From assembly GCF_053078305.1 (NCBI RefSeq), contig NZ_CP166879.1: a stretch of DNA of 64,000 nt. One strand, written 5' to 3'. The number at the start of each line of letters is the position of its first letter. Positions within the stretch are counted from its first letter, which is position 1. Below are positions 23,195 through 60,932 of the stretch, one piece after another. The notes under the pieces were generated by a model that saw nothing but the letters and a program-made list of their open reading frames with translations, was not told the DNA's origin and searched no databases. Position numbers and translations under genes: made by a program.

Positions 23195-23779
23195 TTAACG
23201 GTAATCCAGCGTTACGTTAACGACAGCGTCTGCTTCCCCTGGGGTGATTTCGGATGCTTCAACGGTTGATACGTAGTAAGCGATGAGGTCAACATTGACA
23301 ATTCCAGCGGAGTCCGCAGGGATCTGATAAACCGTGTTATCATTGCCCATAGCATTTAGTGGCATAAGGTTTCCGCTTTCCGCATCGTCAATACGGATAC
23401 CCACACCTGTTGCAGCTGTGCCAGCAAAAGAGCCCACTTTTGCCAAGTTAGGGAAGTTAGGGACGGTACCATTATCCCGCGTTTCCAGCCATAAACGGAA
23501 AGACGCTTCAACGTTGCCGTTATCGTGCTCCCACCCAGTCACTGGGCAGTTAACTAAAGGAATAGTGAATGGAATTTTTGGGCTACGATCGCCAACAGAA
23601 CGAAACTGTTCGGCATTATAGTGACCAAGAGCAACTTCAATTTTCTTATCAGAGTCATTGATTTCACAAGCGGATTTTAAAATCTCGCCATCAAAAACTA
23701 TTTCACCATCGGTTGCAGCGGCATTACCTGCGAAAAGCGCAAGTAAGCCCGCAATAGCTGTTTTTGTAACTTTATTCAT
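23195..23779 (-). CDS. yraH: fimbrial major subunit-like protein YraH, 194 aa
   Basis: Signal peptide and fimbrial subunit-like sequence. Confidence 0.87.
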   Translation of the reverse strand: MNKVTKTAIAGLLALFAGNAAATDGEIVFDGEILKSACEINDSDKKIEVALGHYNAEQFRSVGDRSPKIPFTIPLVNCPVTGWEHDNGNVEASFRLWLETRDNGTVPNFPNLAKVGSFAGTAATGVGIRIDDAESGNLMPLNAMGNDNTVYQIPADSAGIVNVDLIAYYVSTVEASEITPGEADAVVNVTLDYR

Positions 23780-23829
23780 TTATAACCTTATCCTTGTAAC
23801 AAGTACATAATCATATTTAATGTGAATAT

Positions 23830-24140
23830 ATGTTCAACATCTTTAAAGATTATACAGGTGGAAATATTTCATTGAACATTAAATAGACTAAACTTTAAGA
23901 TTATATTTATATGCAAATATTTTATGTTTTTATTATATTGATATGAATTTTCTATGTGTTAAAAAGAGTATAAATGCCTGACTTTGCTGGGCCAAGGGGC
24001 GAGTCAGAATACGAGATGGTTTATTAATAGAACAAGTTATATGTATATCTAAAATTAAATTGTTGAACATAACTCCTTTTGCTATTGGCGTTATGTTCAA
24101 CCCAGTCAAATGTTATTTAATATAATGCGTGACTGTTGAA
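23830..24140. promoter_or_regulatory. array of ATGTTCAA/TTGAACAT motifs in AT-rich yraH upstream region
   Basis: Four full copies (about 23831, 23871, 24061, 24093) plus a partial copy (about 24133), in both orientations. Confidence 0.5.
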
Positions 24141-24179
24141 TAAGTTAATTTAAACATTTTGAGCAAATTTTTCATCTGA

Positions 24180-24935
24180 TTAGGTATTAATTAAACAAAT
24201 AAAGTTACTGTGCAGCCACAAAAACGAAGCCGGGATAGAGGTAGAGACTTTAGCCGTGAGAAAACGTTCTGTCGCATCCTGCTTTCCTTCGCCAGTCACC
24301 AGTAACAAAACCTCGCGGGCATTGAGAATATCCTTCAGGCCTAAGGTGATCCCACGAGTCACGGGGCGGCCCGCGGTTTTTAACATCTCATGTTGCTGTG
24401 TTCTGGCATCAAGTTGACTGATATGGCAGGCCGGTTGCAGGTTTTCTCCCGGTTCGTTCAGCCCAAGATGACCGTTTTTCCCCAATCCGAGAACGCATAA
24501 ATCCAGACCGCCTTTGCGCGCAATCAGGTTCGTTACCCGTTCGCACTCTGTCTCATTTATCTCTTCGGAGCGAAAGCTGATGAGCTGGTCTTCACGTAGC
24601 CCCAGCGGCTGCACGATATGCTGTTGCAGGAAAGTTTCGCAGGTGCCAGGCATCGTTAATGGCAGATCCACCCATTCGTCGAGCTTGACGATGGTCAGTT
24701 GGCTGACATCAACCTGCTGCTGGTGGATTTTTTCTACCAGATAATGATACGTCAGTAATGGCGTCGCTCCGGTCGGCAGGCAAATCACGGCATCCGGTTT
24801 ACTACGGATCACGGCCAATAAATATTCGCTGGCACGTTCACTTAACGCTGTATAGTTTTCAACTTGCTGAAGGGTTTGCACAGGATGAAATTCCTTAAGT
24901 AAAGAGGCACCGCCAGACGCAGTGCCTCGTTCCAT
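24180..24935 (-). CDS. agaI: galactosamine-6-phosphate deaminase/isomerase AgaI, 251 aa
   Basis: NagB-like sequence, recognised. Confidence 0.9.
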   Translation of the reverse strand: MERGTASGGASLLKEFHPVQTLQQVENYTALSERASEYLLAVIRSKPDAVICLPTGATPLLTYHYLVEKIHQQQVDVSQLTIVKLDEWVDLPLTMPGTCETFLQQHIVQPLGLREDQLISFRSEEINETECERVTNLIARKGGLDLCVLGLGKNGHLGLNEPGENLQPACHISQLDARTQQHEMLKTAGRPVTRGITLGLKDILNAREVLLLVTGEGKQDATERFLTAKVSTSIPASFLWLHSNFICLINT

Positions 24936-26558: not shown

Positions 26559-27035
26559 TTAGTCAGGGATTTGTTCTTTTTGATCGCCAGGGACGTCCTG
26601 AATGAAAACATTCACGCCACGTTGTTTAATAAAACGTAAGTCCGCGAGATCCTGGTCATCGACATAAACTTTACTGCTGATTTGCTTTTTCCCTTCCGAG
26701 AAATGCATATTGCCGACGTTGACATCTTTCAGGTCAATGCCACCTTCTACCAATTTACGTACCGTTTGTGGCGTACGGCAAATCAGGAAGATCTTCTGAT
26801 GTGGTGCAGCTTTGCCGATGACGTTAATGGTTTTTTCGATAGTAAAGAAACGAATGCCAAAGCCGTAGGTTTCCGCGGTAATACCCATTAATTTCTGTTG
26901 AATATCATCGTTAGCGACAACATCATCCACGACTACCAGCAGATTTGCACCGATGGTGGATGTCCAGGTCACGCCAACCTGACCGTGAACCAGACGGTTA
27001 TCAATACGGGTTAAGAGAATATTTGGACTGCTCAT
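26559..27035 (-). CDS. agaB: PTS galactosamine-specific EIIB component AgaB, 158 aa
   Basis: Mannose-family IIB with RIDNRLVHGQV motif. Confidence 0.9.
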   Translation of the reverse strand: MSSPNILLTRIDNRLVHGQVGVTWTSTIGANLLVVVDDVVANDDIQQKLMGITAETYGFGIRFFTIEKTINVIGKAAPHQKIFLICRTPQTVRKLVEGGIDLKDVNVGNMHFSEGKKQISSKVYVDDQDLADLRFIKQRGVNVFIQDVPGDQKEQIPD

Positions 27036-27201
27036 TGTGTAATCCTCACCATAAAGTTGAATAATATAATTTTTTTAAATATATTATTGTTGCGATATTG
27101 TACTGATGTATTTATTAAGGTTTAGTCATCTCCTTTTCCATTAAGGCACTCCCCGATATTAATCGGGAAGTACATTGGGATAAATCATAAAAAACTAATG
27201 A

Positions 27202-28074
<873 letters not shown>

Positions 28075-36655: not shown

Positions 36656-38227
36656 TCAGGTCACCGGTGCCGGGTTAAACACCGCCAGCTGGTTATGCAG
36701 TCCCCATTGATCCGAGAAGGTTTTCTTCTTCCCGCTGGCGACGTCGAGAATAAAGTGGAACAACTTCCAGCCCACCTCTTCAATGGTTTCTTCGCCGGTG
36801 GCGATAGTGCCCGCGTTAATGTCCATTAAATCAAACCAGCGGTTCGCCAGCTCGGTGCGGGTCGCCATTTTAATGACGGGTACCGCCATCAGGCCGTACG
36901 GCGTACCACGACCGGTCGTAAACACTTGCACGGTGATACCCGAAGCCACCTGTTGCGTGCCACAGACAAAATCGCTGGCTGGCGTCGCGGCGTAAATTAA
37001 TCCGCGTTTAGTCGGGCGTTGACCGGGCGACAGCACTTCAACAATTGCACTTTTACCCGATTTAGCAATGGAGCCGAGTGCCTTCTCTACCACGTTTGCC
37101 AGACCGCCTTTCTTGTTGCCCGGCGAAGGGTTGGCGCTGCGGTCGGTTTTTCCCATATTGAGATAGTTATCGTACCACTCCATCTCCTCCAGCAGCCGTT
37201 TGCCGACCTCTTCGTTCACTGCGCGTGGTGTCAGCAGATGGATCGCGTCACGCACTTCCGTGACTTCTGAGAACATCACCGTTGCGCCGCAGCGCACCAG
37301 TAGATCAGACGCATACCCAACCGCCGGGTTTGCCGTTACGCCAGAAAAGGCATCGCTGCCACCGCACTGCATGCCGACAACCAGTTCTGAAGCCGGACAG
37401 GTTTCTCGCTGACGTTGATTCAGTTTTTGTAGATGGCGTTCGGCGACCTGCAAAATATCCTCGACCATGGACTGAAAACCGACATGCTTTTCATCCTGCA
37501 AACTGACAATGCTGGCGCTTTCTACTGGAATAGCTTGCACATCATCCGTTCCAGTCAGCAGGCGCTCAGGCTGCAACTTTTCACAACCCAGGCCAATCAC
37601 CATTACTTCGCCGCCAAAGTTAGGGTTCAGCGAAATATTGTGAATGGTACGAATAGGTACAACTGCCGCCGGTGCGTTAATCGCCACGCCACAACCGTAC
37701 AAATGATTCAGCCCCACCACGCCATCGACGTTCGGGTATTTCGGTAGCAGATCGCGTTCAATGATTTTTACTACATAGTCCACCACGCCTGCCACACAGT
37801 GGACGCTGGTGGTGATGCCGAGCAGGTTTTTGGTGCCCACGCTGCCATCGGCATTGCGATAGCCCTCAAAGGTGTATCCTTCCAGCGGCGGTAAGGGTTC
37901 CGGGACTTTGGTTGCCAGTGGCAGCGTGTGTAACGGCGGCGCTTCCGGTAGTACAACCATTGACTCGTCGATCCAGCTTCCGCGTGGGATTGCGCGCACG
38001 GCGTAACCAATCACTTCGCCATAACGAATAATTTCACCATTAGCCGGAATGTCCAGCAATGCGACTTTATGCCCCTGGGGAATATGTTCAATTAATTCCA
38101 GCCCATCCGGAAAACGCGTTCCTGCTTTCAGGCCATTATCATTAACAATAATTGCCACATTATCTGTGTCGTGAACTTTTATATAAAACGCAGTTGGCGT
38201 TTCTTGTCTGATTTCGATGTTGGCCAT
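36656..38227 (-). CDS. garD: galactarate dehydratase GarD, 523 aa
   Basis: ORF recognised. Confidence 0.94.
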
Positions 38228-38601
38228 TGTGCAATATTCTCCAGCCAGGGGTTATTAAAATGAGGACCTGGTCTCATTTAAAAATAAATGACTTCATTGG
38301 GTGAAATAAGAATGTCAGGAGTTTAAACGCAGAAATGTGATCAATGTCAATCATTTCAGGGATTGCAATGCCGCCCGGCAAGGTAAAGCGCAAATCTGTG
38401 CTTTAGCGCGCAACCTTATGTGCATATGCTCAAAATAATATTTAAATAGTATTAATTAAATTAGCATTTGCACAATGATTATTATTCTCGCGCTGCTTAT
38501 ACTAATTCCCGAGTTCATTGTCGTTACGGCATAAATGAAACTCATAAATAACACCTTCCCCATAATAATAAAAATCAGCATAAGTACCCGAGGTAAATAA
38601 A

Positions 38602-39936
38602 ATGATTCTGGACACCGTTGACGAAAAAAAGAAAGGCGTGCATACCCGCTATTTAATATTACTGATTATTTTTATTGTTACCGCCGTTAACTACGCCGAT
38701 CGTGCAACGCTGTCTATTGCTGGTACCGAAGTGGCAAAAGAGTTGCAGTTAAGTGCGGTTTCGATGGGTTACATCTTTTCTGCTTTTGGCTGGGCCTACT
38801 TGCTGATGCAAATCCCCGGCGGCTGGCTGCTTGATAAGTTTGGCTCGAAAAAAGTTTACACCTACAGCCTCTTTTTCTGGTCGCTATTCACCTTCCTGCA
38901 AGGCTTTGTTGATATGTTCCCGCTGGCCTGGGCAGGGATCTCCATGTTCTTTATGCGCTTTATGCTCGGCTTCTCGGAAGCGCCATCATTCCCGGCGAAC
39001 GCCCGTATTGTCGCCGCCTGGTTCCCGACGAAAGAACGTGGTACTGCCTCCGCCATCTTTAACTCGGCGCAATATTTCTCGCTGGCGCTCTTTTCGCCTC
39101 TGCTTGGCTGGCTGACTTTCGCCTGGGGCTGGGAGCACGTCTTTACCGTTATGGGGGTGATTGGTTTTGTGCTGACGGCGCTGTGGATCAAATTGATTCA
39201 TAACCCGACAGATCACCCACGTATGTCTGCGGAAGAGCTGAAGTTTATCTCTGAAAATGGCGCGGTGGTCGATATGGACCACAAAAAGCCGGGCAGTGCG
39301 GCAGCAAGCGGACCCAAACTGCATTACATCAAGCAATTGCTCTCTAACCGCATGATGCTTGGCGTATTTTTCGGACAATATTTTATCAACACCATCACCT
39401 GGTTCTTCCTCACCTGGTTCCCGATTTATCTGGTGCAGGAAAAAGGTATGTCGATTCTGAAAGTGGGTCTGGTCGCCTCGATTCCAGCACTGTGTGGTTT
39501 TGCGGGCGGCGTGCTGGGAGGTGTCTTCTCGGATTATCTGATCAAACGCGGTTTATCCCTGACCCTGGCACGTAAGCTACCGATTGTGCTGGGAATGTTG
39601 CTGGCTTCCACCATCATCTTATGTAACTACACCAACAACACCACGCTGGTGGTCATGCTGATGGCGCTGGCTTTCTTTGGCAAAGGATTTGGTGCGCTGG
39701 GCTGGCCGGTGATTTCTGACACCGCGCCGAAAGAGATTGTTGGCCTCTGCGGCGGCGTCTTTAACGTCTTTGGCAATGTTGCCTCCATTGTCACTCCACT
39801 GGTGATTGGCTACCTGGTAAGTGAACTGCACTCCTTCAATGCAGCACTGGTTTTCGTGGGATGTTCAGCGCTGATGGCGATGGTCTGCTACCTCTTCGTA
39901 GTTGGCGACATTAAACGTATGGAATTGCAGAAATAA
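38602..39936 (+). CDS. garP: galactarate/glucarate/glycerate MFS transporter GarP, 444 aa
   Basis: ORF recognised. Confidence 0.92.
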   Translation: MILDTVDEKKKGVHTRYLILLIIFIVTAVNYADRATLSIAGTEVAKELQLSAVSMGYIFSAFGWAYLLMQIPGGWLLDKFGSKKVYTYSLFFWSLFTFLQGFVDMFPLAWAGISMFFMRFMLGFSEAPSFPANARIVAAWFPTKERGTASAIFNSAQYFSLALFSPLLGWLTFAWGWEHVFTVMGVIGFVLTALWIKLIHNPTDHPRMSAEELKFISENGAVVDMDHKKPGSAAASGPKLHYIKQLLSNRMMLGVFFGQYFINTITWFFLTWFPIYLVQEKGMSILKVGLVASIPALCGFAGGVLGGVFSDYLIKRGLSLTLARKLPIVLGMLLASTIILCNYTNNTTLVVMLMALAFFGKGFGALGWPVISDTAPKEIVGLCGGVFNVFGNVASIVTPLVIGYLVSELHSFNAALVFVGCSALMAMVCYLFVVGDIKRMELQK

Positions 39937-41642: not shown

Positions 41643-41738
41643 TGACGTCGTGCCCGGATGGCGTATTGCAATCCGGGCCTGGAATCCAGGCCGAATAAGA
41701 GAAACGCCCTCCGGCGTCATGTGGTAACAGGCATAGGT

Positions 41739-42884
41739 ATGAAAATCGTAATCGCCCCAGACTCTTATAAAGAAAGTTTATCTGCCAGCGAGGTTGCGCA
41801 GGCGATAGAAAAAGGATTTCGGGAAATTTTTCCTGATGCACAGTACGTTTCTGTTCCTGTTGCCGACGGTGGCGAAGGAACGGTGGAAGCGATGATTGCA
41901 GCCACCCAGGGTTCCGAACGTCACGCCTGGGTTACAGGGCCGCTGGGCGAGAAAGTGAATGCCAGTTGGGGGATCTCCGGCGATGGCAAAACCGCGTTTA
42001 TTGAAATGGCGGCGGCCAGTGGGCTGGAGCTGGTACCTGCGGAAAAACGCGATCCACTCGTGACCACTTCACGCGGCACAGGCGAGTTAATCCTGCAGGC
42101 GCTGGAGAGCGGCGCGACAAACATTATTATCGGCATTGGCGGCAGCGCTACAAATGATGGCGGCGCAGGCATGGTACAGGCGCTGGGGGCGAAATTATGC
42201 GACGCCAACGGCAATGAAATTGGTTTTGGCGGCGGTAGTCTTAATACTCTGAATGATATTGATATTTCCGGCCTCGATCCGCGCTTAAAAGATTGCGTCA
42301 TTCGCGTCGCTTGTGATGTCACCAATCCGCTGGTGGGCGATAACGGCGCATCGCGCATCTTTGGCCCACAAAAGGGAGCCAGTGAAGCGATGATTGTTGA
42401 GCTGGACAATAACCTCTCTCACTATGCCGAGGTCATTAAAAAAGCGCTGCATGTTGATGTGAAAGATGTCCCCGGCGCAGGAGCTGCTGGCGGTATGGGA
42501 GCGGCGCTGATGGCGTTTCTTGGTGCGGAACTGAAAAGTGGTATTGAAATCGTCACTACGGCGCTGAATCTGGAGGAACATATTCACGATTGTACGCTGG
42601 TGATCACCGGTGAAGGGCGTATTGACAGCCAGAGTATTCACGGCAAGGTACCGATTGGCGTCGCAAACGTGGCGAAGAAGTACCATAAACCGGTGATTGG
42701 CATTGCGGGTAGCCTGACCGATGATGTTGGCGTTGTACATCAGCATGGTATTGATGCGGTCTTCAGCGTACTGACCAGCATTGGTACGTTGGACGAAGCA
42801 TTCCGCGGGGCTTATGACAATATCTGCCGTGCTTCACGTAATATCGCCGCGACACTGGCGATTGGAATGCGCAACGCGGGGTGA
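41739..42884 (+). CDS. garK: glycerate 2-kinase GarK, 381 aa
   Basis: Start set at MKIVIAPDSYKESLSA. Confidence 0.9.
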   Translation: MKIVIAPDSYKESLSASEVAQAIEKGFREIFPDAQYVSVPVADGGEGTVEAMIAATQGSERHAWVTGPLGEKVNASWGISGDGKTAFIEMAAASGLELVPAEKRDPLVTTSRGTGELILQALESGATNIIIGIGGSATNDGGAGMVQALGAKLCDANGNEIGFGGGSLNTLNDIDISGLDPRLKDCVIRVACDVTNPLVGDNGASRIFGPQKGASEAMIVELDNNLSHYAEVIKKALHVDVKDVPGAGAAGGMGAALMAFLGAELKSGIEIVTTALNLEEHIHDCTLVITGEGRIDSQSIHGKVPIGVANVAKKYHKPVIGIAGSLTDDVGVVHQHGIDAVFSVLTSIGTLDEAFRGAYDNICRASRNIAATLAIGMRNAG

Positions 42885-42916: not shown

Positions 42917-43293
<377 letters not shown>

Positions 43294-43632
43294 GATTTAC
43301 GTAAAAACCCGCTTCGGCGGGTTTTTGCTTTTGGAGGGGCAGAAAGATGAATGACTGTCCACGACACTATACCCAAAAGAAAGCGGCTTATCGGTCAGTT
43401 TCACCTGATTTACGTAAAAACCCGCTTCGGCGGTTTTTTGCTTTTGGAGGGGCAGAAAGATGAATGACTGTCCACGACACTATACCCAAAAGAAAGCGGC
43501 TTATCGGTCAGTTTTACCTGATTTAACGAAAACCCGCCAGCGTAAACTGGCGGGTTTTTGCTTTTGGTGCACAGGGTAAGATGAATAAATATCTACGGTA
43601 TTAATAATAGACTTTGTAAGAAGTTATTAAGT

Positions 43633-44821
43633 CTATATTGCATTTAAAAGGTCGTAATTATACGTATAGTCCTCTCTGGTAAAATATTGGTTCTCTGAGT
43701 TATATGCTTCATATGTGTTATATTCCCCGACCTCAAAACCATTGTCCGGAGAATTTTCGTCTTTCTCGAGGGTGTTATCTGAAAGTAACTCTTCTGAGCT
43801 AGAGTCTTCTATGTTTAAATCCATAGTATAATTAATTTGGGGAATGACCAGATAAGCATTTTCTTTGATATTTTCATAATCTTCAATGATTATGTCGATA
43901 TAATCATGTATTTTTTTCTGATGAGAAATCTATCATCTCTGGTAATTTAATTCTGTTCAAGAAATTATTGATTTTCGATGAGCTTTTATATATTTCTTTT
44001 GTTAATTCATTTTCTAATTTATCTGTAAGAGTTGCTCTTGGTATAGATTTTATAATTGCAAATCTCATGATTTTTAATTGTTCTTCGGTAATATCTCCAA
44101 GCTCATTTAAACAACTTTCGACAAGCTTAATTTTTTCTTCAGAATACATATCGCTAATGCTTGTTAGAACAGGCGTTATTTTTAGTAAATAATCCCAGGA
44201 GATTGTGGTGTTTTGTTTTGAACTAACGAAATTTACCTGAAACATGTTGGCATTAGTAAAATCTGTGTCATCCAATTTAAAAGGATTTAAAATTGCATTG
44301 GCCATATGTTTATCTGTAAAATCATAAAGTTCTAAATCGACATTCCGTAAGTCCAGAGAGGATAGATCAACTATACCTCCAGTTCCACAACTAAAAACTA
44401 CGTTTAACCTCCTGATTTCATTGTAAATATCTTTCAATGGACAATTAACATTGATATTGCCTGTGGATATTTCCTGGTTTTTTAACGGTTCATTAATTGT
44501 AAGTTCGCAGGTATTGTCTGATCGTTGAATAATTCGGGCGTTATAACCAAAAAAATCCATACGAAGAGACGAATCATTATAAAGAATTACATTTTGTAAG
44601 TACGCTAATTCTTTTTGAAAATCACCAGTGATAACACATTTCCCACCTGGTTGTAACGCGTTAAGTAAAGTGACCATTTCAATAGAGGTCTGTTTTAGTT
44701 TTTCTATACCTGGTGCTAGTGCTTCGAGGTTATTAACTATGGGGCTTTCAGGAAGGTCATTCATTTTTCGACGGACTAAATCACTACTAATATCATTACC
44801 AATTGATGAAACAGGGAACAT
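43633..44821 (-). pseudogene. yhaC: yhaC with +1 frameshift in A7/T7 homopolymer
   Basis: Two adjacent ORFs (44821-43904 and 43824-43633) in different frames; locus is 1189 nt where an intact 395-aa gene needs 1188; shift maps to T7 run at 43911-43917. Confidence 0.7.
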
Positions 44822-44842
44822 TATTTTATCCTTTATAAATAA

Positions 44843-45403
44843 TCAATAAAAATCATTATTAAAATGATCGGGTGAAAAAAAGAGAATTTGCCAACAATCT
44901 GAAGTAATGCTGGTTTTATTAAAGTGCACAAGAGGTGTTAAGATGGCTTCTTTTCGGGTGAATTTTGCACAATACTTAGAAATCGTCTCCTTAATACATT
45001 CCAGCTCTTTTTTATTGACGGCTGAGCAAGTACATTGTTCGCCAAAAGGTGCAAAAGTGCCTACATCTAATGTTTGTATGATATAATCATCATGTTCTCC
45101 TGTAGAAATATCTATGATGAATGGACTCATATTTTCCGGTTGGATTCGGATCATGACAGAAGGAACATCGCCTTGATAGAAATTCAATGCAGTAATTGCA
45201 GATAATACTCTCCGCAGTTCATTACTTATACTGTATATTTTATTAACGTCATTGGTGGAGACAATTTCTGCAAACTTTCTTTTTACCGTCCAATAATCAA
45301 TATTTCTATTGTGATTGTTAACCACTGCGTGCATTGGTGGGATTGAAGGGTGAAAAATATGTGCAATTGGGAAGCCTTTCATTGATGCCTGCCTTGTCAT
45401 CAT
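44843..45403 (-). CDS. yhaB: uncharacterised protein YhaB (about 186 aa)
   Basis: ORF recognised; exact start among adjacent Met codons uncertain; AT-rich. Confidence 0.78.
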   Translation of the reverse strand: MMTRQASMKGFPIAHIFHPSIPPMHAVVNNHNRNIDYWTVKRKFAEIVSTNDVNKIYSISNELRRVLSAITALNFYQGDVPSVMIRIQPENMSPFIIDISTGEHDDYIIQTLDVGTFAPFGEQCTCSAVNKKELECIKETISKYCAKFTRKEAILTPLVHFNKTSITSDCWQILFFSPDHFNNDFY

Positions 45404-45637
45404 GACAAACAATAATAGATGCTTATTTTCCTCGCAGGGTTCTTTCGCACTATCAAAAAACGCTCATTTACCCGGCGTTACAGTAAACGAAGCAACATTC
45501 TGTGGCCTACGCCGATCAAAAGCTCTGTGAAAATTTCCCTTGTTGTCTTTGTCTGACCTTATCGCGGCGATCAGCAATTATTCGTTTTGTGATCCTCAAC
45601 ACAAAATGCTATTCGTCGCCTATGAAGGGAGAAGAAT

Positions 45638-45982
45638 TTATGGAAAACGATTGCATTCACAAAATGACGTCCTGTCAGAAGAGAAAAAGTTGATGTTAAT
45701 CAATTGTTCGAGATGATCAATACCTGTATTCGAAATTTTAAAATATTGATAAAATAAATGTTTGTTCTCCAACAAATAGCGTGAAAAAATGTGACGTGCC
45801 GCATTATTTATCGCTGAAAATGGTTTATTTATAATAAAATTTGAGAACTTGCTCATTAAATTTAACTCAAATTTTGCCTGGTAATTATCCGGTAATTGCT
45901 TGAAATATGGTCTCAGCCCCTTTTTTGTATTAACCACATAACGAATGATGTTATCGCCATAAAATATGGTTATCCCCGTCAT
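45638..45982 (-). CDS. tdcR: TdcR, putative tdc operon regulator (long form about 114 aa)
   Basis: ORF recognised; start uncertain (shorter forms annotated in some genomes). Confidence 0.65.
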   Translation of the reverse strand: MTGITIFYGDNIIRYVVNTKKGLRPYFKQLPDNYQAKFELNLMSKFSNFIINKPFSAINNAARHIFSRYLLENKHLFYQYFKISNTGIDHLEQLININFFSSDRTSFCECNRFP

Positions 45983-46092
45983 TTTTTTTGACAAAAATCA
46001 GGGTTTATGCTGATTTTTATACTTTAACTTATTGATATTTAAAGGTATTTAATTGACATGACGATACCTTGGAAAGTATTGAAAGTTAATTT

Positions 46093-46108
46093 GTGAGTGG
46101 TCGCACAT
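46093..46108 (+). promoter_or_regulatory. CRP binding site in tdc promoter
   Basis: tgtgagtggtcgcaca matches TGTGA-N6-TCACA; tdc operon is known to be catabolite-controlled. Confidence 0.6.
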
Positions 46109-46170
46109 ATCCTGTTCATTTCATTTTGATACACTTCATGCCGTCAATGAGGTAATTAACGTAGGTCGTT

Positions 46171-47109
46171 ATGAGCACTATTCTTCTTCCGAAAACGCAG
46201 CACCTGGTAGTCTTTCAGGAAGTCATTAGAAGTGGCTCTATCGGCTCGGCTGCAAAAGAATTAGGGTTAACTCAACCGGCCGTCAGTAAAATCATTAACG
46301 ATATTGAAGATTATTTTGGTGTGGAATTAGTGGTGCGGAAAAATACCGGAGTAACATTAACACCTGCCGGTCAATTGTTACTCTCTCGTTCCGAATCCAT
46401 TACCCGTGAAATGAAAAATATGGTTAATGAGATAAGCGGTATGTCTTCTGAGGCGGTGGTGGAAGTCTCATTTGGTTTTCCTTCATTGATTGGTTTTACT
46501 TTTATGTCAGGGATGATCAACAAGTTCAAAGAGGTGTTCCCGAAAGCGCAGGTTTCTATGTATGAAGCGCAACTGTCTTCGTTCTTACCGGCAATCCGCG
46601 ACGGTCGACTTGATTTTGCGATTGGTACGTTAAGCGCAGAAATGAAGCTTCAGGATTTACATGTTGAGCCGCTGTTCGAGTCCGAGTTTGTGCTGGTAGC
46701 CAGTAAGTCCCGAACATGCACCGGCACCACCACGCTGGAGTCGTTGAAGAACGAACAGTGGGTGTTGCCACAAACTAATATGGGGTACTACAGCGAACTG
46801 CTTACTACGTTACAAAGAAATGGCATCAGTATTGAAAACATCGTTAAAACCGACTCAGTCGTGACAATTTATAATCTTGTTCTCAATGCTGATTTCTTAA
46901 CTGTAATTCCTTGTGATATGACGTCTCCTTTTGGTTCTAATCAATTTATTACTATTCCGGTTGAAGAAACATTACCTGTGGCACAATATGCCGCGGTATG
47001 GTCGAAAAATTATCGTATTAAAAAAGCAGCATCGGTTTTGGTGGAATTAGCCAAAGAGTATTCATCTTATAATGGGTGTAGACGAAGGCAATTAATAGAA
47101 GTTGGTTAG
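46171..47109 (+). CDS. tdcA: LysR-family activator TdcA, 312 aa
   Basis: ORF recognised. Confidence 0.92.
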   Translation: MSTILLPKTQHLVVFQEVIRSGSIGSAAKELGLTQPAVSKIINDIEDYFGVELVVRKNTGVTLTPAGQLLLSRSESITREMKNMVNEISGMSSEAVVEVSFGFPSLIGFTFMSGMINKFKEVFPKAQVSMYEAQLSSFLPAIRDGRLDFAIGTLSAEMKLQDLHVEPLFESEFVLVASKSRTCTGTTTLESLKNEQWVLPQTNMGYYSELLTTLQRNGISIENIVKTDSVVTIYNLVLNADFLTVIPCDMTSPFGSNQFITIPVEETLPVAQYAAVWSKNYRIKKAASVLVELAKEYSSYNGCRRRQLIEVG

Positions 47110-47207: not shown

Positions 47208-48197
47208 ATGCATATTACATACGATCTGCCGGTTGCTATTGATGACATTATTGAAGCGAAACAACGACTGGCTGGGCGAATTTATAAAACAGGCATGCCT
47301 CGCTCCAACTATTTTAGTGAACGTTGCAAAGGTGAAATATTCCTGAAGTTTGAAAATATGCAGCGTACGGGTTCATTTAAAATTCGTGGCGCATTTAATA
47401 AATTAAGTTCACTGACTGATGCGGAAAAACGCAAAGGCGTGGTGGCCTGTTCTGCGGGCAACCATGCGCAAGGGGTTTCGCTCTCCTGCGCGATGCTGGG
47501 TATCGACGGTAAAGTGGTGATGCCAAAAGGCGCGCCGAAATCCAAAGTAGCGGCAACGTGCGACTACTCCGCAGAAGTCGTTCTGCATGGTGATAACTTC
47601 AACGACACTATCGCTAAAGTGAGCGAAATTGTCGAAATGGAAGGCCGTATTTTTATCCCACCTTACGATGATCCGAAAGTGATTGCTGGCCAGGGAACGA
47701 TTGGTCTGGAAATTATGGAAGATCTCTATGATGTCGATAACGTGATTGTGCCAATTGGTGGTGGCGGTTTAATTGCTGGTATTGCGGTGGCAATTAAATC
47801 TATTAACCCGACCATTCGTGTTATTGGCGTACAGTCTGAAAACGTTCACGGCATGGCGGCTTCTTTCCACTCCGGAGAAATAACCACGCACCGAACTACC
47901 GGCACCCTGGCGGATGGTTGTGATGTCTCCCGCCCGGGTAATTTAACTTACGAAATCGTTCGTGAATTAGTCGATGACATCGTGCTGGTCAGCGAAGACG
48001 AAATCAGAAACAGTATGATTGCCTTAATTCAGCGCAATAAAGTCGTCACCGAAGGCGCAGGCGCTCTGGCATGTGCTGCATTATTAAGCGGTAAATTAGA
48101 CCAATATATTCAAAACAGAAAAACCGTCAGTATTATTTCCGGCGGCAATATCGATCTTTCTCGCGTCTCTCAAATCACCGGTTTCGTTGACGCTTAA
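47208..48197 (+). CDS. tdcB: catabolic threonine dehydratase TdcB (PLP), 329 aa
   Basis: ORF recognised. Confidence 0.94.
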
Positions 48198-59968: not shown

Positions 59969-60325
59969 TTAATTTGAACCAAACTTCGGATCGTTTCCGT
60001 AACGATTGCTGCCAGAAGTACCTTCTGTGCAGAAAAAAACCAGAAGCACGAGCCAGCCAATAAACGGAACAAAAAAGAGCAAGGCCCAGGCACCTGAACG
60101 GTCGGTATCGTGTAAGCGACGGATAGCAAGCGCAAGGACGGGAAGGAAGGTTGCCAGCAAATAAAGCATAGACAGATATGGAAGCTCCAGACCTAAAATC
60201 AATTGAATGACATTGATAATAGCGCCGACGATGGCGTTAATCAGAGTAAACATCCAGTACTCTTTACGACGTGCGCGACCAGAGAAACCAACATAATTTT
60301 TTAATACGGATAAATACCACTGCAT
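59969..60325 (-). CDS. yhaI: DUF805 inner membrane protein YhaI, 118 aa
   Basis: ORF recognised; paralogous to yhaH. Confidence 0.87.
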   Translation of the reverse strand: MQWYLSVLKNYVGFSGRARRKEYWMFTLINAIVGAIINVIQLILGLELPYLSMLYLLATFLPVLALAIRRLHDTDRSGAWALLFFVPFIGWLVLLVFFCTEGTSGSNRYGNDPKFGSN

Positions 60326-60525
60326 AAAAACATCCCTTTAATTAAAAGTGACGAAAGTCTATTCCGGGTATTGTGTAAATGCTATTCGTATCTTTCTTTT
60401 TCGGATGTTATAAAGGTTTTGATATTTAAGATAAATACATGGTTATTTTTTATAGGTAATTTATATAACGACATTGAAATATTTTAAATAAACATTAGTA
60501 AATTATTCATTCATCAACATGATGA

Positions 60526-60553
60526 TAAAAGCCGGATGAGTCAGACATCCGGC
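60526..60553 (-). terminator. intrinsic terminator downstream of yhaH
   Basis: Perfect 8-bp stem gccggatg / catccggc with 7-nt loop, followed by a U-run on the minus strand. Confidence 0.7.
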
Positions 60554-60566
60554 GAGCAGATTTGTT

Positions 60567-60932
60567 TTAAGGTTCCAGTTTTGGATCAGGTCCAAAGCGG
60601 TTTTCGCCTGGCGTACCCGCCTGGCAGTTAAAGACGATGATAATAAGCCAGCCGATAAACGGGATTAAGAATAGCAGTGCCCACCACGCCGAGCGGTCGG
60701 TGTCGTGCAGGCGGCGGAACTGAACTGCCCACCACGGTAAAAACACCAGAATACCGTAGATTGTCGTCAGGATGCCTTCGCCACCAGCGCGTTGCCAGCC
60801 TAACATTTTATCCAGCAGCCCCAGCACGAACGTAAAGATGATGTTGACCAGAATAAACATCCAGTACTCTTTGCGCCGCGCACGACCCCGGAAACCGACA
60901 TAATTTTTTAGTACTTTCAGATACCAGTCCAT
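60567..60932 (-). CDS. yhaH: DUF805 inner membrane protein YhaH, 121 aa
   Basis: Start set at MDWYLKVLKNYVGF. Confidence 0.87.
   Translation of the reverse strand: MDWYLKVLKNYVGFRGRARRKEYWMFILVNIIFTFVLGLLDKMLGWQRAGGEGILTTIYGILVFLPWWAVQFRRLHDTDRSAWWALLFLIPFIGWLIIIVFNCQAGTPGENRFGPDPKLEP

Follow-up and report, generated by a model that had tools for sequence, protein, structure and literature searches.

The AT-rich block lying between rnpB and the tdc operon in the window analyzed here (the whole stretch of 64,000 nucleotides) is best explained, with a probability of about 0.7 for the account as a whole, as joining two pieces of DNA with different histories: an acquired islet at 43598-45575, comprising yhaC, yhaB and the yhaB leader, and an ancestral AT-rich segment of the tdc locus at 45576-46170 (Table 1). 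In E. coli, the chromosomal stretch from rnpB to the tdc operon is already known to be low in GC, and its gene annotation, low G+C content, prediction as foreign DNA, H-NS binding and rapid yhaC evolution have all been published. A preliminary description had interpreted positions 43600-46170 as a single low-GC unit of old horizontal acquisition, which is only partly right, given that its two pieces differ in origin.

The compositional anomaly itself is pronounced. The GC content of 43600-46170 is 33.2%, as compared with 51.2% in the remainder of the 64-kb window, and is the minimum among all windows of 2,571 bp, lying ~4 sd below their mean (0.504, sd 0.043). Codon usage is equally atypical, with third-position GC of 0.25 in yhaC, 0.30 in yhaB and 0.31 in tdcR (0.42-0.66 in 36 other long ORFs) and Karlin codon-usage distances of 0.65, 0.61 and 0.68, respectively, a departure of over 4 sd from the reference set (33 ORFs, 0.29 ± 0.08, maximum 0.59). 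The GC and codon-usage analyses thus bear out the description of the block as AT-rich relative to its flanks, and the genes found (rnpB, yhaC, yhaB, tdcR, and tdcA) are those it had listed. Matches to the H-NS motif TCGATAAATT with up to two mismatches occur at 4.3 per kb in the block and 1.5 per kb elsewhere, an excess that is discounted as evidence because it merely mirrors AT-richness. A weaker drop in GC extends past the block, through tdcA (42%) and tdcB (47%), to about position 47400.

Table 1. Features of the rnpB-tdcA interval and its flanks (positions in the 64-kb window).
Feature	Position	Strand	Basis or remark
rnpB (RNase P RNA), left core flank	42917..43293	+	Rfam RF00010, 318.6 bits, full length
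113-bp tandem repeats	43253..43597	+	TRF period 113, 2.4 copies; repeat families D1-D4
G+C-rich hairpin between convergent rnpB repeats and yhaC	43527..43560	.	14-bp stem, then T-run on + strand
Escherichia-specific yhaB-yhaC islet, ~2 kb	43598..45575	-	BLAST boundaries against 10 islet-less spacers
yhaC pseudogene	43633..44821	-	alignment to K-12, Santai, EC42405
A7 homopolymer, +1 frameshift site	43911..43917	-	A6 in K-12 and intact alleles
Pentapeptide-repeat-like segment of YhaC	44207..44380	-	aa 148-205, ~10 consecutive pentapeptides
yhaB, intact, 179 aa	44843..45382	-	99% identical to K-12
CRP site upstream of yhaB	45585..45605	-	sequence ttTGTGTtgaggaTCACAaaa, islet/ancestral junction
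tdcR ORF, 72 aa, within ancestral AT-rich DNA	45638..45856	-	NCBIfam NF008507
FNR consensus TTGAT-N4-ATCAA inside tdcR	45690..45703	-	sequence match
tdcR-tdcA divergent regulatory region (tdc promoter)	45857..46170	.	~67% nucleotide identity with Citrobacter, Enterobacter
tdcA, first tdc operon gene, right core flank	46171..47109	+	dN = 0 between strains

The block is not a single acquired unit: its right-hand ~600 bp shares homology with the spacer that separates rnpB from tdcA in Citrobacter and Enterobacter, of which 591-598 bp align to 45583-46168 at ~67%. This spacer measures 650-850 bp in most Enterobacteriaceae genera and has a GC content of 33-37%, and, as judged from these alignments, the AT-richness of 45576-46170 is that of native regulatory DNA and was not acquired. 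The segment would represent the ancestral upstream regulatory region of tdc, being found, and AT-rich, in every member of the Enterobacteriaceae that retains garK-rnpB-tdcA synteny, and in Escherichia it carries the small tdcR ORF. TdcR is not an uncharacterised protein, its gene being annotated as the tdc activator; the K-12 protein scores 174 bits against its family model (cut-off 100 bits), 4 of the 72 residues are changed in the protein of the window, and the ORF there is 96% identical to K-12 TdcR. The ORF is intact in Escherichia only, where it is broken in some lineages, and its dN/dS ranges from 0.23 to 1.12; a less probable reading is that "tdcR" acts chiefly in cis, as conserved regulatory DNA, and not through a protein product. 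The K-12 counterpart of the FNR site within it is reported to be an FNR ChIP-chip target labelled "yhaB" (PMC1802558), PMC12871828 lists ttTGTGTtgaggaTCACAaaa among CRP footprints obtained in vitro, with yhaB as the assigned gene, and IS5 insertions in the tdcR-tdcA regulatory region are selected in the mouse gut.

The left-hand piece has a far narrower distribution, and the homologous spacer of other genera lacks it. Searches of 5.8 billion proteins with YhaC and YhaB returned source-named matches from E. coli or Shigella only, the full set of YhaB matches consisting of Escherichia/Shigella and unnamed metagenome proteins, and an exhaustive search with a profile against 1.84 billion representative sequences yielded one full-length cluster plus fragments, with the remaining hits restricted to the pentapeptide region of YhaC (aa ~105-242). 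The phylogenetic distribution proposed as a check on the block therefore proves Escherichia-restricted for yhaB-yhaC, and these genes have been placed in a young phylostratum (PMC12218254). E. albertii keeps a remnant corresponding to YhaB aa 8-48 (54-59% identity) in the same place and orientation, and what may be left of YhaC is marginally recognizable in Escherichia sp. MOD1-EC7003 (E 0.006-0.015); islet remnants were not found in E. whittamii, E1V33, SCPM, or E69. Even within E. coli presence is variable: among 5,423 genomes with a match, only 4,316 have at least 80% of the region, most of the islet is missing from ~20% of E. coli genomes, three small remnants persist in B2/Nissle-like genomes, and IS621, IS1, and IS903B insertions are found in the region. 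The islet would thus have entered the rnpB-tdcA spacer before the split of E. coli and E. albertii and later have been lost by deletion from B2 strains, from E. albertii and from several cryptic lineages of Escherichia, and interrupted by IS elements elsewhere, though its presence in both species might also stem from a more recent gain in one and subsequent exchange with the other.

At its left boundary the islet begins where the final, degenerate copy of a 113-bp repeat ends. These repeats are re-copied rnpB 3' ends, including the terminator hairpin, and vary in copy number among strains. On the minus strand, the hairpin at 43527..43560 lies 73 nt past the yhaC stop codon and is followed by TTTTCGTT; by its structure and placement it is probably a bidirectional terminator. 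A scan for promoter and terminator consensus sequences was uninformative (12 sites, compared with 13 ± 4.7 in shuffled sequence).

Across Enterobacteriaceae, the spacer between rnpB and tdcA repeatedly accommodates cargo, holding in other genera PAAR-pyocin DNase toxins with immunity genes (in Citrobacter and Leclercia), a PTS operon, a methyl-accepting chemotaxis protein (MCP), or IS remnants, and the presence of unrelated cargo in the same spacer fits an insertion of the islet. When YhaB and YhaC were compared by BLASTP with the proteins that these other genera carry in the spacer, no match was obtained. Neither an integrase ORF nor another mobility gene was found at the islet, and no att-like duplications bracketing it were found, the rnpB 3' repeats being present on the left side only and absent near 45576. 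Because there is no donor or homologue in the databases, and no mobility gene or att-like duplication, we infer the horizontal origin of yhaBC from composition, distribution and the hotspot. Of the claim of old horizontal acquisition, the age stands for the islet, given the confinement of yhaBC to Escherichia and the yhaB remnant of E. albertii, while the import is conditional: the most likely source would be horizontal transfer from an unsampled donor. That yhaB-yhaC arose locally instead, de novo or by strong divergence, or just drifted to low GC, within a native AT-rich, poorly expressed and H-NS-coated spacer of the Escherichia ancestor under AT-biased mutation, would agree with the lack of homologues, mobility genes and att repeats in what was searched, with the 33-37% GC of the native spacer in most genera, and with the adjacent tdcR, which resembles an ORF opened in pre-existing regulatory DNA. 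We nevertheless consider a local origin improbable, since islet-less spacers hold only ~50-140 bp of unmatched DNA, too little for a 2-kb precursor, since a 395-codon ORF with a pentapeptide stretch and a dN/dS of ~0.3 is unlikely to have emerged de novo in recent times, and since the same site hosts unrelated foreign cargo in other genera.

Binding of H-NS is documented for the K-12 locus. In K-12, a "promoter island" internal to yhaC is H-NS-bound in all ChIP studies and another at tdcA/tdcR in two (PMC3661553, Table 1), and both are foreign by several predictions and poorly transcribed (Panyukov and Ozoline, 2013; PMC3661553). We infer silencing of the islet in the window strain, where it would be H-NS-bound and largely silent as published for K-12. 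The narrow distribution and empty site by which H-NS-silenced DNA is recognized are found at 43598-45575 and not at 45576-46170.

Selection and divergence in the islet are of particular relevance to the nature of its two genes, which are read in the same direction, yhaB and then yhaC, with 21 bp between them. Their dN/dS ratios are 0.24-0.38 for yhaC and 0.03-0.25 for yhaB, and the chance of a 395-codon ORF at 32% GC without selection is estimated at ~1e-13. The E. coli islet falls into two deep haplogroups separated by 12-35% nucleotide divergence, as compared with 1-5% in the flanks, and its dS between K-12 and EC42405 is 0.56-0.64 (tdcA 0.08, garK 0.15). In published work, yhaC also ranks near the top of the genes under positive selection (PMC9110714). 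The two genes would accordingly encode real proteins that are weakly constrained, fast evolving and dispensable.

In the window, yhaC is frameshifted, as had been noted, by the replacement of A6 with A7. The gene consists of a 305-codon 5' ORF (43904-44821), which a premature TGA at 43904-43906 cuts short of the full 395 codons, and a 3' remainder out of frame; removal of one A restores translation of the full 395-aa YhaC. In the closest genome, O157:H16 Santai, PGAP likewise labels yhaC "frameshifted". Of 5,426 complete E. coli genomes, 22 contain the A7 allele, sought as an exact 81-mer, and 1,111 contain its A6 counterpart with identical flanks; 24 genomes match the window at 99% identity or more across the whole 2.9 kb. 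Because the same A7 allele recurs in these 22 genomes, the frameshift is inherited and is not a sequencing error, and in the lineage of the window strain a single A insertion would have inactivated yhaC. It is highly improbable that the lesion is instead harmless, whether as an assembly error, a phase-variation switch, or a site of transcriptional or +1 ribosomal slippage yielding full-length YhaC, even though it sits within a homopolymer and a +1 slip of tRNA-Lys on A AAA AAA T would, from the sequence, bring back the K-12 frame. The allele is identical across 22 independent complete assemblies, about as many as the 24 near-identical haplotype genomes, which fits one inherited event rather than error or frequent switching; A7 is also short for efficient slippage, and the next codon, AAT, is not a hungry codon. 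Phase variation at A7 in particular was rejected on this agreement in number.

The intact K-12 YhaC matches its family model NCBIfam NF007262 with 887 bits over residues 1-395 (cut-off 765 bits) and is acidic (pI 4.4). A tandem A(D/N)LXX-type pentapeptide register is recognizable in YhaC, which scores below the Pfam gathering thresholds for PF00805 (11-12 bits, threshold 20.2) and PF13599 (14 bits, threshold 38). A YhaC profile matches genuine pentapeptide-repeat proteins with E-values of 1e-10 to 1e-3, among them more than 40 long proteins matched nearly always by aa ~140-215 and mostly in several stretches, and seven of the eight matches examined carry PF00805 (E 1e-29 to 1e-95). YhaB (20.6 kDa, pI 6.4) belongs to PF27690 by the database's precomputed annotation and has no Pfam match at E ≤ 1 in our search; large YhaB clusters carry frameshifted C-termini, as expected of an islet in decay. 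AlphaFold2 predictions are too low in confidence to be used for either protein, with a mean pLDDT of 40.8 for YhaC (14-sequence alignment; repeat region <40) and 33.6 for YhaB (5 sequences). Sequence searches of PDB chains, PADLOC, and PHROGs returned chance-level matches only. The pentapeptide stretch and very acidic tail of YhaC may, tentatively, form a protein-binding surface or nucleic-acid mimic, with YhaB possibly serving as partner of this soluble acidic protein.

These properties have led us to consider whether yhaB-yhaC is an active conflict module under diversifying or balancing selection, such that the frameshift and deletions would be adaptive losses and not the outcome of neutral decay. 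The arrangement as a two-gene operon that is present in some genomes and absent from others, two deep haplogroups whose dS exceeds that of the flanks 4-8 times, dN/dS above that of the neighbours, published positive selection, the toxin-immunity cargo of Citrobacter and Leclercia at the hotspot, and a pentapeptide+TIR protein among the YhaC profile hits would all suit such a role, as would the B2 strains, which lack ETT2 and likewise the islet. The candidates (an effector with its immunity protein or chaperone, an anti-phage system, or a type III (ETT2) effector-like protein with a pentapeptide beta-helix like that of PipB2 or EspX) are nonetheless unlikely even when taken jointly, as is the module itself. 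Neither protein has a significant PADLOC, PHROGs, Pfam, or PDB sequence match, the best in PADLOC-DB 2.0 being a 60-residue stretch of YhaB (E 0.011) and YhaC giving nothing, and inspection found no enzymatic, transmembrane or signal motif in either. Homology to type III effectors or chaperones was not found for YhaB or YhaC in Pfam and PDB, where YhaC hits weak pentapeptide models only, and YhaB, having no Pfam hit at all, matches neither CesT nor any other family of type III chaperones. High dS is also expected from low expression, AT-rich DNA, and recombination with a divergent lineage. It is quite improbable that the pair is a functional, fast-evolving conflict module of an undescribed kind, formed by an acidic pentapeptide beta-helix protein and its partner and maintained in alternative haplotypes of ancient origin, along with presence/absence variation, at a cargo hotspot next to rnpB where neighbouring genera carry PAAR-DNase toxin and immunity genes. 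The two-piece account, with an islet in decay, is preferred.

As found, the locus is ordinary and matters little. What is added to the published picture is a clean split between the acquired islet (43598-45575) and ancestral AT-rich tdc DNA (45576-46170), evidence for an islet older than the E. coli/E. albertii split and lost repeatedly, the recognition that GC content alone would wrongly mark the segment with tdcR and the promoter as foreign, and a recurrent cargo site in the rnpB-tdcA spacer across Enterobacteriaceae. Should YhaB and YhaC prove functional, they would add a further pair to the orphan proteins specific to Escherichia.

Among known systems, the locus resembles integration hotspots near small stable RNA genes of the tRNA/tmRNA type in that the islet lies directly 3' of a structured RNA gene, the 3' end of rnpB is tandemly re-copied, and the cargo differs among genera. 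It departs from such islands in having no integrase and no copy of the rnpB 3' end on the far side of the islet, and in that the rnpB repeats are tandem and are also present where the site is empty. YhaC resembles pentapeptide-repeat proteins (PF00805/PF13599; Qnr, MfpA, PipB2) in carrying L/F/M at the centre position across residues 148-205, whereas the repeat covers only ~15% of the protein and the rest has no relatives. The tdcR ORF occupies the same divergent position upstream of tdcA as that of TdcR, the tdc activator, though its confinement to Escherichia, disruption in some lineages and near-neutral dN/dS would be unusual for a dedicated regulator. Another likeness is to the H-NS-silenced islets or "promoter islands" of K-12, which share the locus, the AT-richness and H-NS binding in published ChIP data, and from which the present block differs in its division into acquired and ancestral parts and in having yhaC as a pseudogene.

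The low GC content that the preliminary description had remarked between rnpB and the tdc operon is borne out by measurement. In this E. coli DNA, which runs in reverse relative to K-12 and has O157:H16 strain Santai as its nearest complete genome (99.7% over 43294-46170), the block at 43600-46170 has 33.2% GC versus 51.2% in the remaining window, the minimum among equal-length windows in the 64 kb and ~4 sd under the mean. Third-position GC is 0.25 in yhaC, 0.30 in yhaB and 0.31 in tdcR (36 other long ORFs, 0.42-0.66), and the Karlin codon-usage distances of these three genes are 0.61-0.68 versus 0.29 +/- 0.08 for 33 reference ORFs. Since GC, third-position GC and codon distances are all atypical, the block does deviate in composition, as had been proposed, and the lack of a difference in GC and codon usage that would have refuted the proposal is not seen.

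Features of the rnpB-tdc region, other AT-rich segments of the window, and jointly listed cargo loci of other genomes
Feature	Coordinates	Strand	Remark
garK	41658-42884	+	
rnpB	42917-43293	+	Rfam RF00010, 318.6 bits
113-bp tandem repeats	43253-43597		straight after rnpB
yhaC	43633-44821	-	
A7 tract in yhaC	43911-43917		A6 in intact alleles
yhaB	44843-45382	-	
CRP site	45585-45605		strong; ~200 bp upstream of yhaB
tdcR	45638-45856	-	
FNR target counterpart	45690-45703		perfect TTGAT-N4-ATCAA
tdcA	46171-47109	+	then tdcB onwards
Segment <40% GC	23401-24400		by position roughly yraH/yraI fimbrial genes
Segment <40% GC	26701-27500		by position roughly kbaY-agaB region
Segment <40% GC	38001-38800		by position roughly garP/garD intergenic region
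Segment <40% GC	60001-60700		by position roughly yhaH/yhaI region
Citrobacter/Leclercia spacer cargo	L018 868-2773; L024 4347-6249; L011 5693-5998; L065 4178-5440		tdcA loci of other genomes

A TdcA-based scan of one genome per species recovered 64 loci, across which garK-rnpB-tdcA synteny is widespread in Enterobacteriaceae and the rnpB-tdcA spacer measures only 650-850 bp, at 33-37% GC, in most genera. When the spacers of other genera were compared with the window by sensitive BLAST, 45576-46170, which holds tdcR and the tdc promoter, matched those of Citrobacter and Enterobacter at ~67% over ~595 bp, and the rnpB terminator repeats up to ~43597 were likewise shared; no part of 43598-45575 was found outside Escherichia. 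Only ~2 kb, an islet of yhaC, yhaB and the yhaB leader, is therefore lineage-specific, and the right-hand 600 bp is native AT-rich regulatory DNA. The AT-rich block is a composite of which only the left three-quarters is plausibly foreign, and this is the single substantial correction to the preliminary description: its observation of an already known feature is confirmed, and its interpretation is partly supported, horizontal acquisition being plausible for the islet and not for the right-hand part.

The terminator repeats duplicate the final ~50 nt of RNase P RNA plus the terminator hairpin and are present in ~2.4 copies in the window, one copy in a Nissle-like strain and more in K-12, the rnpB-yhaC gap being 613 bp in K-12 and 339 bp in the window. 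Repeats akin to these units also occur in Enterobacter and Citrobacter.

No integrase is present at the islet, and a search for an att-like duplication bracketing it found none. The rnpB-tdcA spacer is 2-5 kb long in a dozen other species, with cargo unrelated to the islet. Citrobacter spacers carry PAAR/S-type-pyocin/colicin-DNase toxins followed by colicin/pyocin immunity genes, or in one species an orphan immunity gene, and in Leclercia the PAAR/S-type-pyocin protein is shorter, lacks the DNase domain and is not accompanied by a colicin-type immunity gene. Two further spacers (L014, L015) hold a mannose-type PTS operon together with a GntR regulator, another (L050) a chemoreceptor, and that of S. 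enterica subsp. arizonae (L044) IS remnants. Since the rnpB flank is thus a recurrent insertion site and cargo hotspot, an imported origin is the most economical explanation for yhaBC. A purely local origin of the islet is unlikely, because empty sites hold only ~50-140 bp of unmatched DNA.

Among 5.8 billion proteins, YhaC and YhaB matches bearing a source name come without exception from E. coli or Shigella. When 1.84 billion cluster representatives were searched exhaustively with a HMMER profile, one full-length cluster plus fragments came back, the remaining matches being confined to the pentapeptide region (~aa 105-242) of long pentapeptide-repeat proteins. Locus L005 is a 6-kb contig (CAUHML010000178.1) filed under an uncultured Bacteroides MAG; its tdcA, tdcR, yhaB and yhaC products share 98-100% identity with the K-12 proteins, and it seems to be a contaminant from binning. 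Within Escherichia, to which the phylogenetic distribution is restricted, the islet is absent, with no remnant detected, from the species representatives E. whittamii, E1V33, SCPM-O-B-8794 and E69; in E. albertii part of yhaB is still recognisable (aa 8-48, 54-59% identity, E ~1e-9; 74% nucleotide identity over 135 bp), and in Escherichia sp. MOD1-EC7003 there is a marginal yhaC fragment (aa 314-335, E 0.006-0.015). At least 80% of the region is present in 4,316 of 5,423 matching E. coli genomes. In a large E. coli class, exemplified by a Nissle 1917 derivative, all that is left is yhaB codons 1-34 and, of yhaC, codons 91-111 and the final 13, clear debris of deletion, and in several large clusters of YhaB the C-terminus is frameshifted. 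The simplest reading is that the islet was gained long ago and has since been lost repeatedly, a process still under way. IS621 (IS110 family), IS1A/IS1 or IS903B is annotated between or within yhaC and yhaB in some complete genomes (BLAST matches H9, H12, H21 and H23; e.g., O104:H4 2011C-3493).

The frameshift reported for yhaC is real: aligned with the K-12, Santai and divergent alleles, the window copy shows one extra A, which ends the frame at a TGA once 305 of the 395 codons have been read, and PGAP also labels the Santai gene 'frameshifted'. Exact matches to an 81-nt probe placed the A7 allele in 22 complete genomes out of 5,426, their hosts being varied, and the A6 version with identical flanks in 1,111. 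Because the 22 A7 genomes roughly equal in number the 24 that match the window at >=99% identity over the entire region, A7 is read as a single inherited mutation of one lineage, and sequencing error or a phase switch is rejected.

YhaC (45 kDa, pI 4.4), in which no hydrophobic segment was found, comprises an orphan N-terminal region, ~10 consecutive pentapeptides (aa 148-205), a stretch predicted to be helical and a strongly acidic tail, with 18 D+E in the last 70 residues. Its pentapeptide segment lies under Pfam thresholds, yet in the profile search it does match genuine members of the family. YhaB (20.6 kDa, pI 6.4) is assigned to PF27690 by the search database's precomputed annotation, an assignment that a local Pfam scan did not return. 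Searches of PDB, PADLOC and PHROGs gave no significant match for either protein, and the structure prediction suggested earlier gave little, with AlphaFold2 pLDDT of 40.8 (YhaC) and 33.6 (YhaB) and shallow alignments.

Pairwise Nei-Gojobori estimates of dN/dS are 0.24-0.38 for yhaC and 0.03-0.25 for yhaB (garK, 0.04-0.05; tdcA, dN = 0), showing that both islet genes have been under purifying selection, far weaker than that on tdcA or garK. Between K-12 and EC42405, dS is 0.56-0.64 in the islet, 0.08 in tdcA and 0.15 in garK, and a sliding profile restricts nucleotide divergence of 12-35% to ~43550-45600, with flanks at 1-5%. EC42405 (locus L004, 1802-3532, against window 43633-45382) carries a second-haplogroup islet, while its flanking-gene DNA differs by just 1-5%; this haplogroup is rare, with 23 of the 5,423 E. 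coli genomes falling at 80-90% identity, and its YhaC and YhaB share 64-66% and 77-78% protein identity with K-12. Such unusual polymorphism agrees with a published ranking (PMC9110714) that has yhaC as one of the E. coli genes most strongly 'positively selected', though it could equally stem from relaxed constraint, from mutation bias at low expression or from an imported divergent allele.

Comparison of tdcR with loci L006-L012, L017, L021, L025, L026, L030 and L062 showed its frame to be open solely in Escherichia, the homologous Citrobacter and Enterobacter DNA being recognisable and holding many stops. Even within Escherichia an in-frame stop interrupts it in one representative, the start codon of E. 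albertii reads ATA, and the stop codon has been lost in three lineages. Pairwise dN/dS is 0.23-1.12, typically 0.5-0.8, only a hint of a weakly constrained TdcR protein or of conservation at the DNA level because counts over 216 nt are small. Together, frame interruptions and dN/dS raise doubt as to how far tdcR acts as a protein.

The CRP site lies at the islet/ancestral junction and is the counterpart of an in vitro footprint assigned to yhaB, and the K-12 FNR ChIP-chip target labelled yhaB maps inside tdcR, as does its window counterpart; for both, genome-wide binding studies report corresponding K-12 sites. When E. coli colonises old mice, IS5 insertions in the tdcA/tdcR spacer repeatedly increase, an event of a type that often relieves silencing, the paper giving no mechanism (PMC7518454). 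The silencing by H-NS proposed earlier accords with K-12, where a 706-bp 'promoter island' within yhaC and a 477-bp one in the tdcA-tdcR interval are both flagged as predicted foreign DNA and as H-NS-bound, the former in all ChIP studies and the latter in two (PMC3661553).
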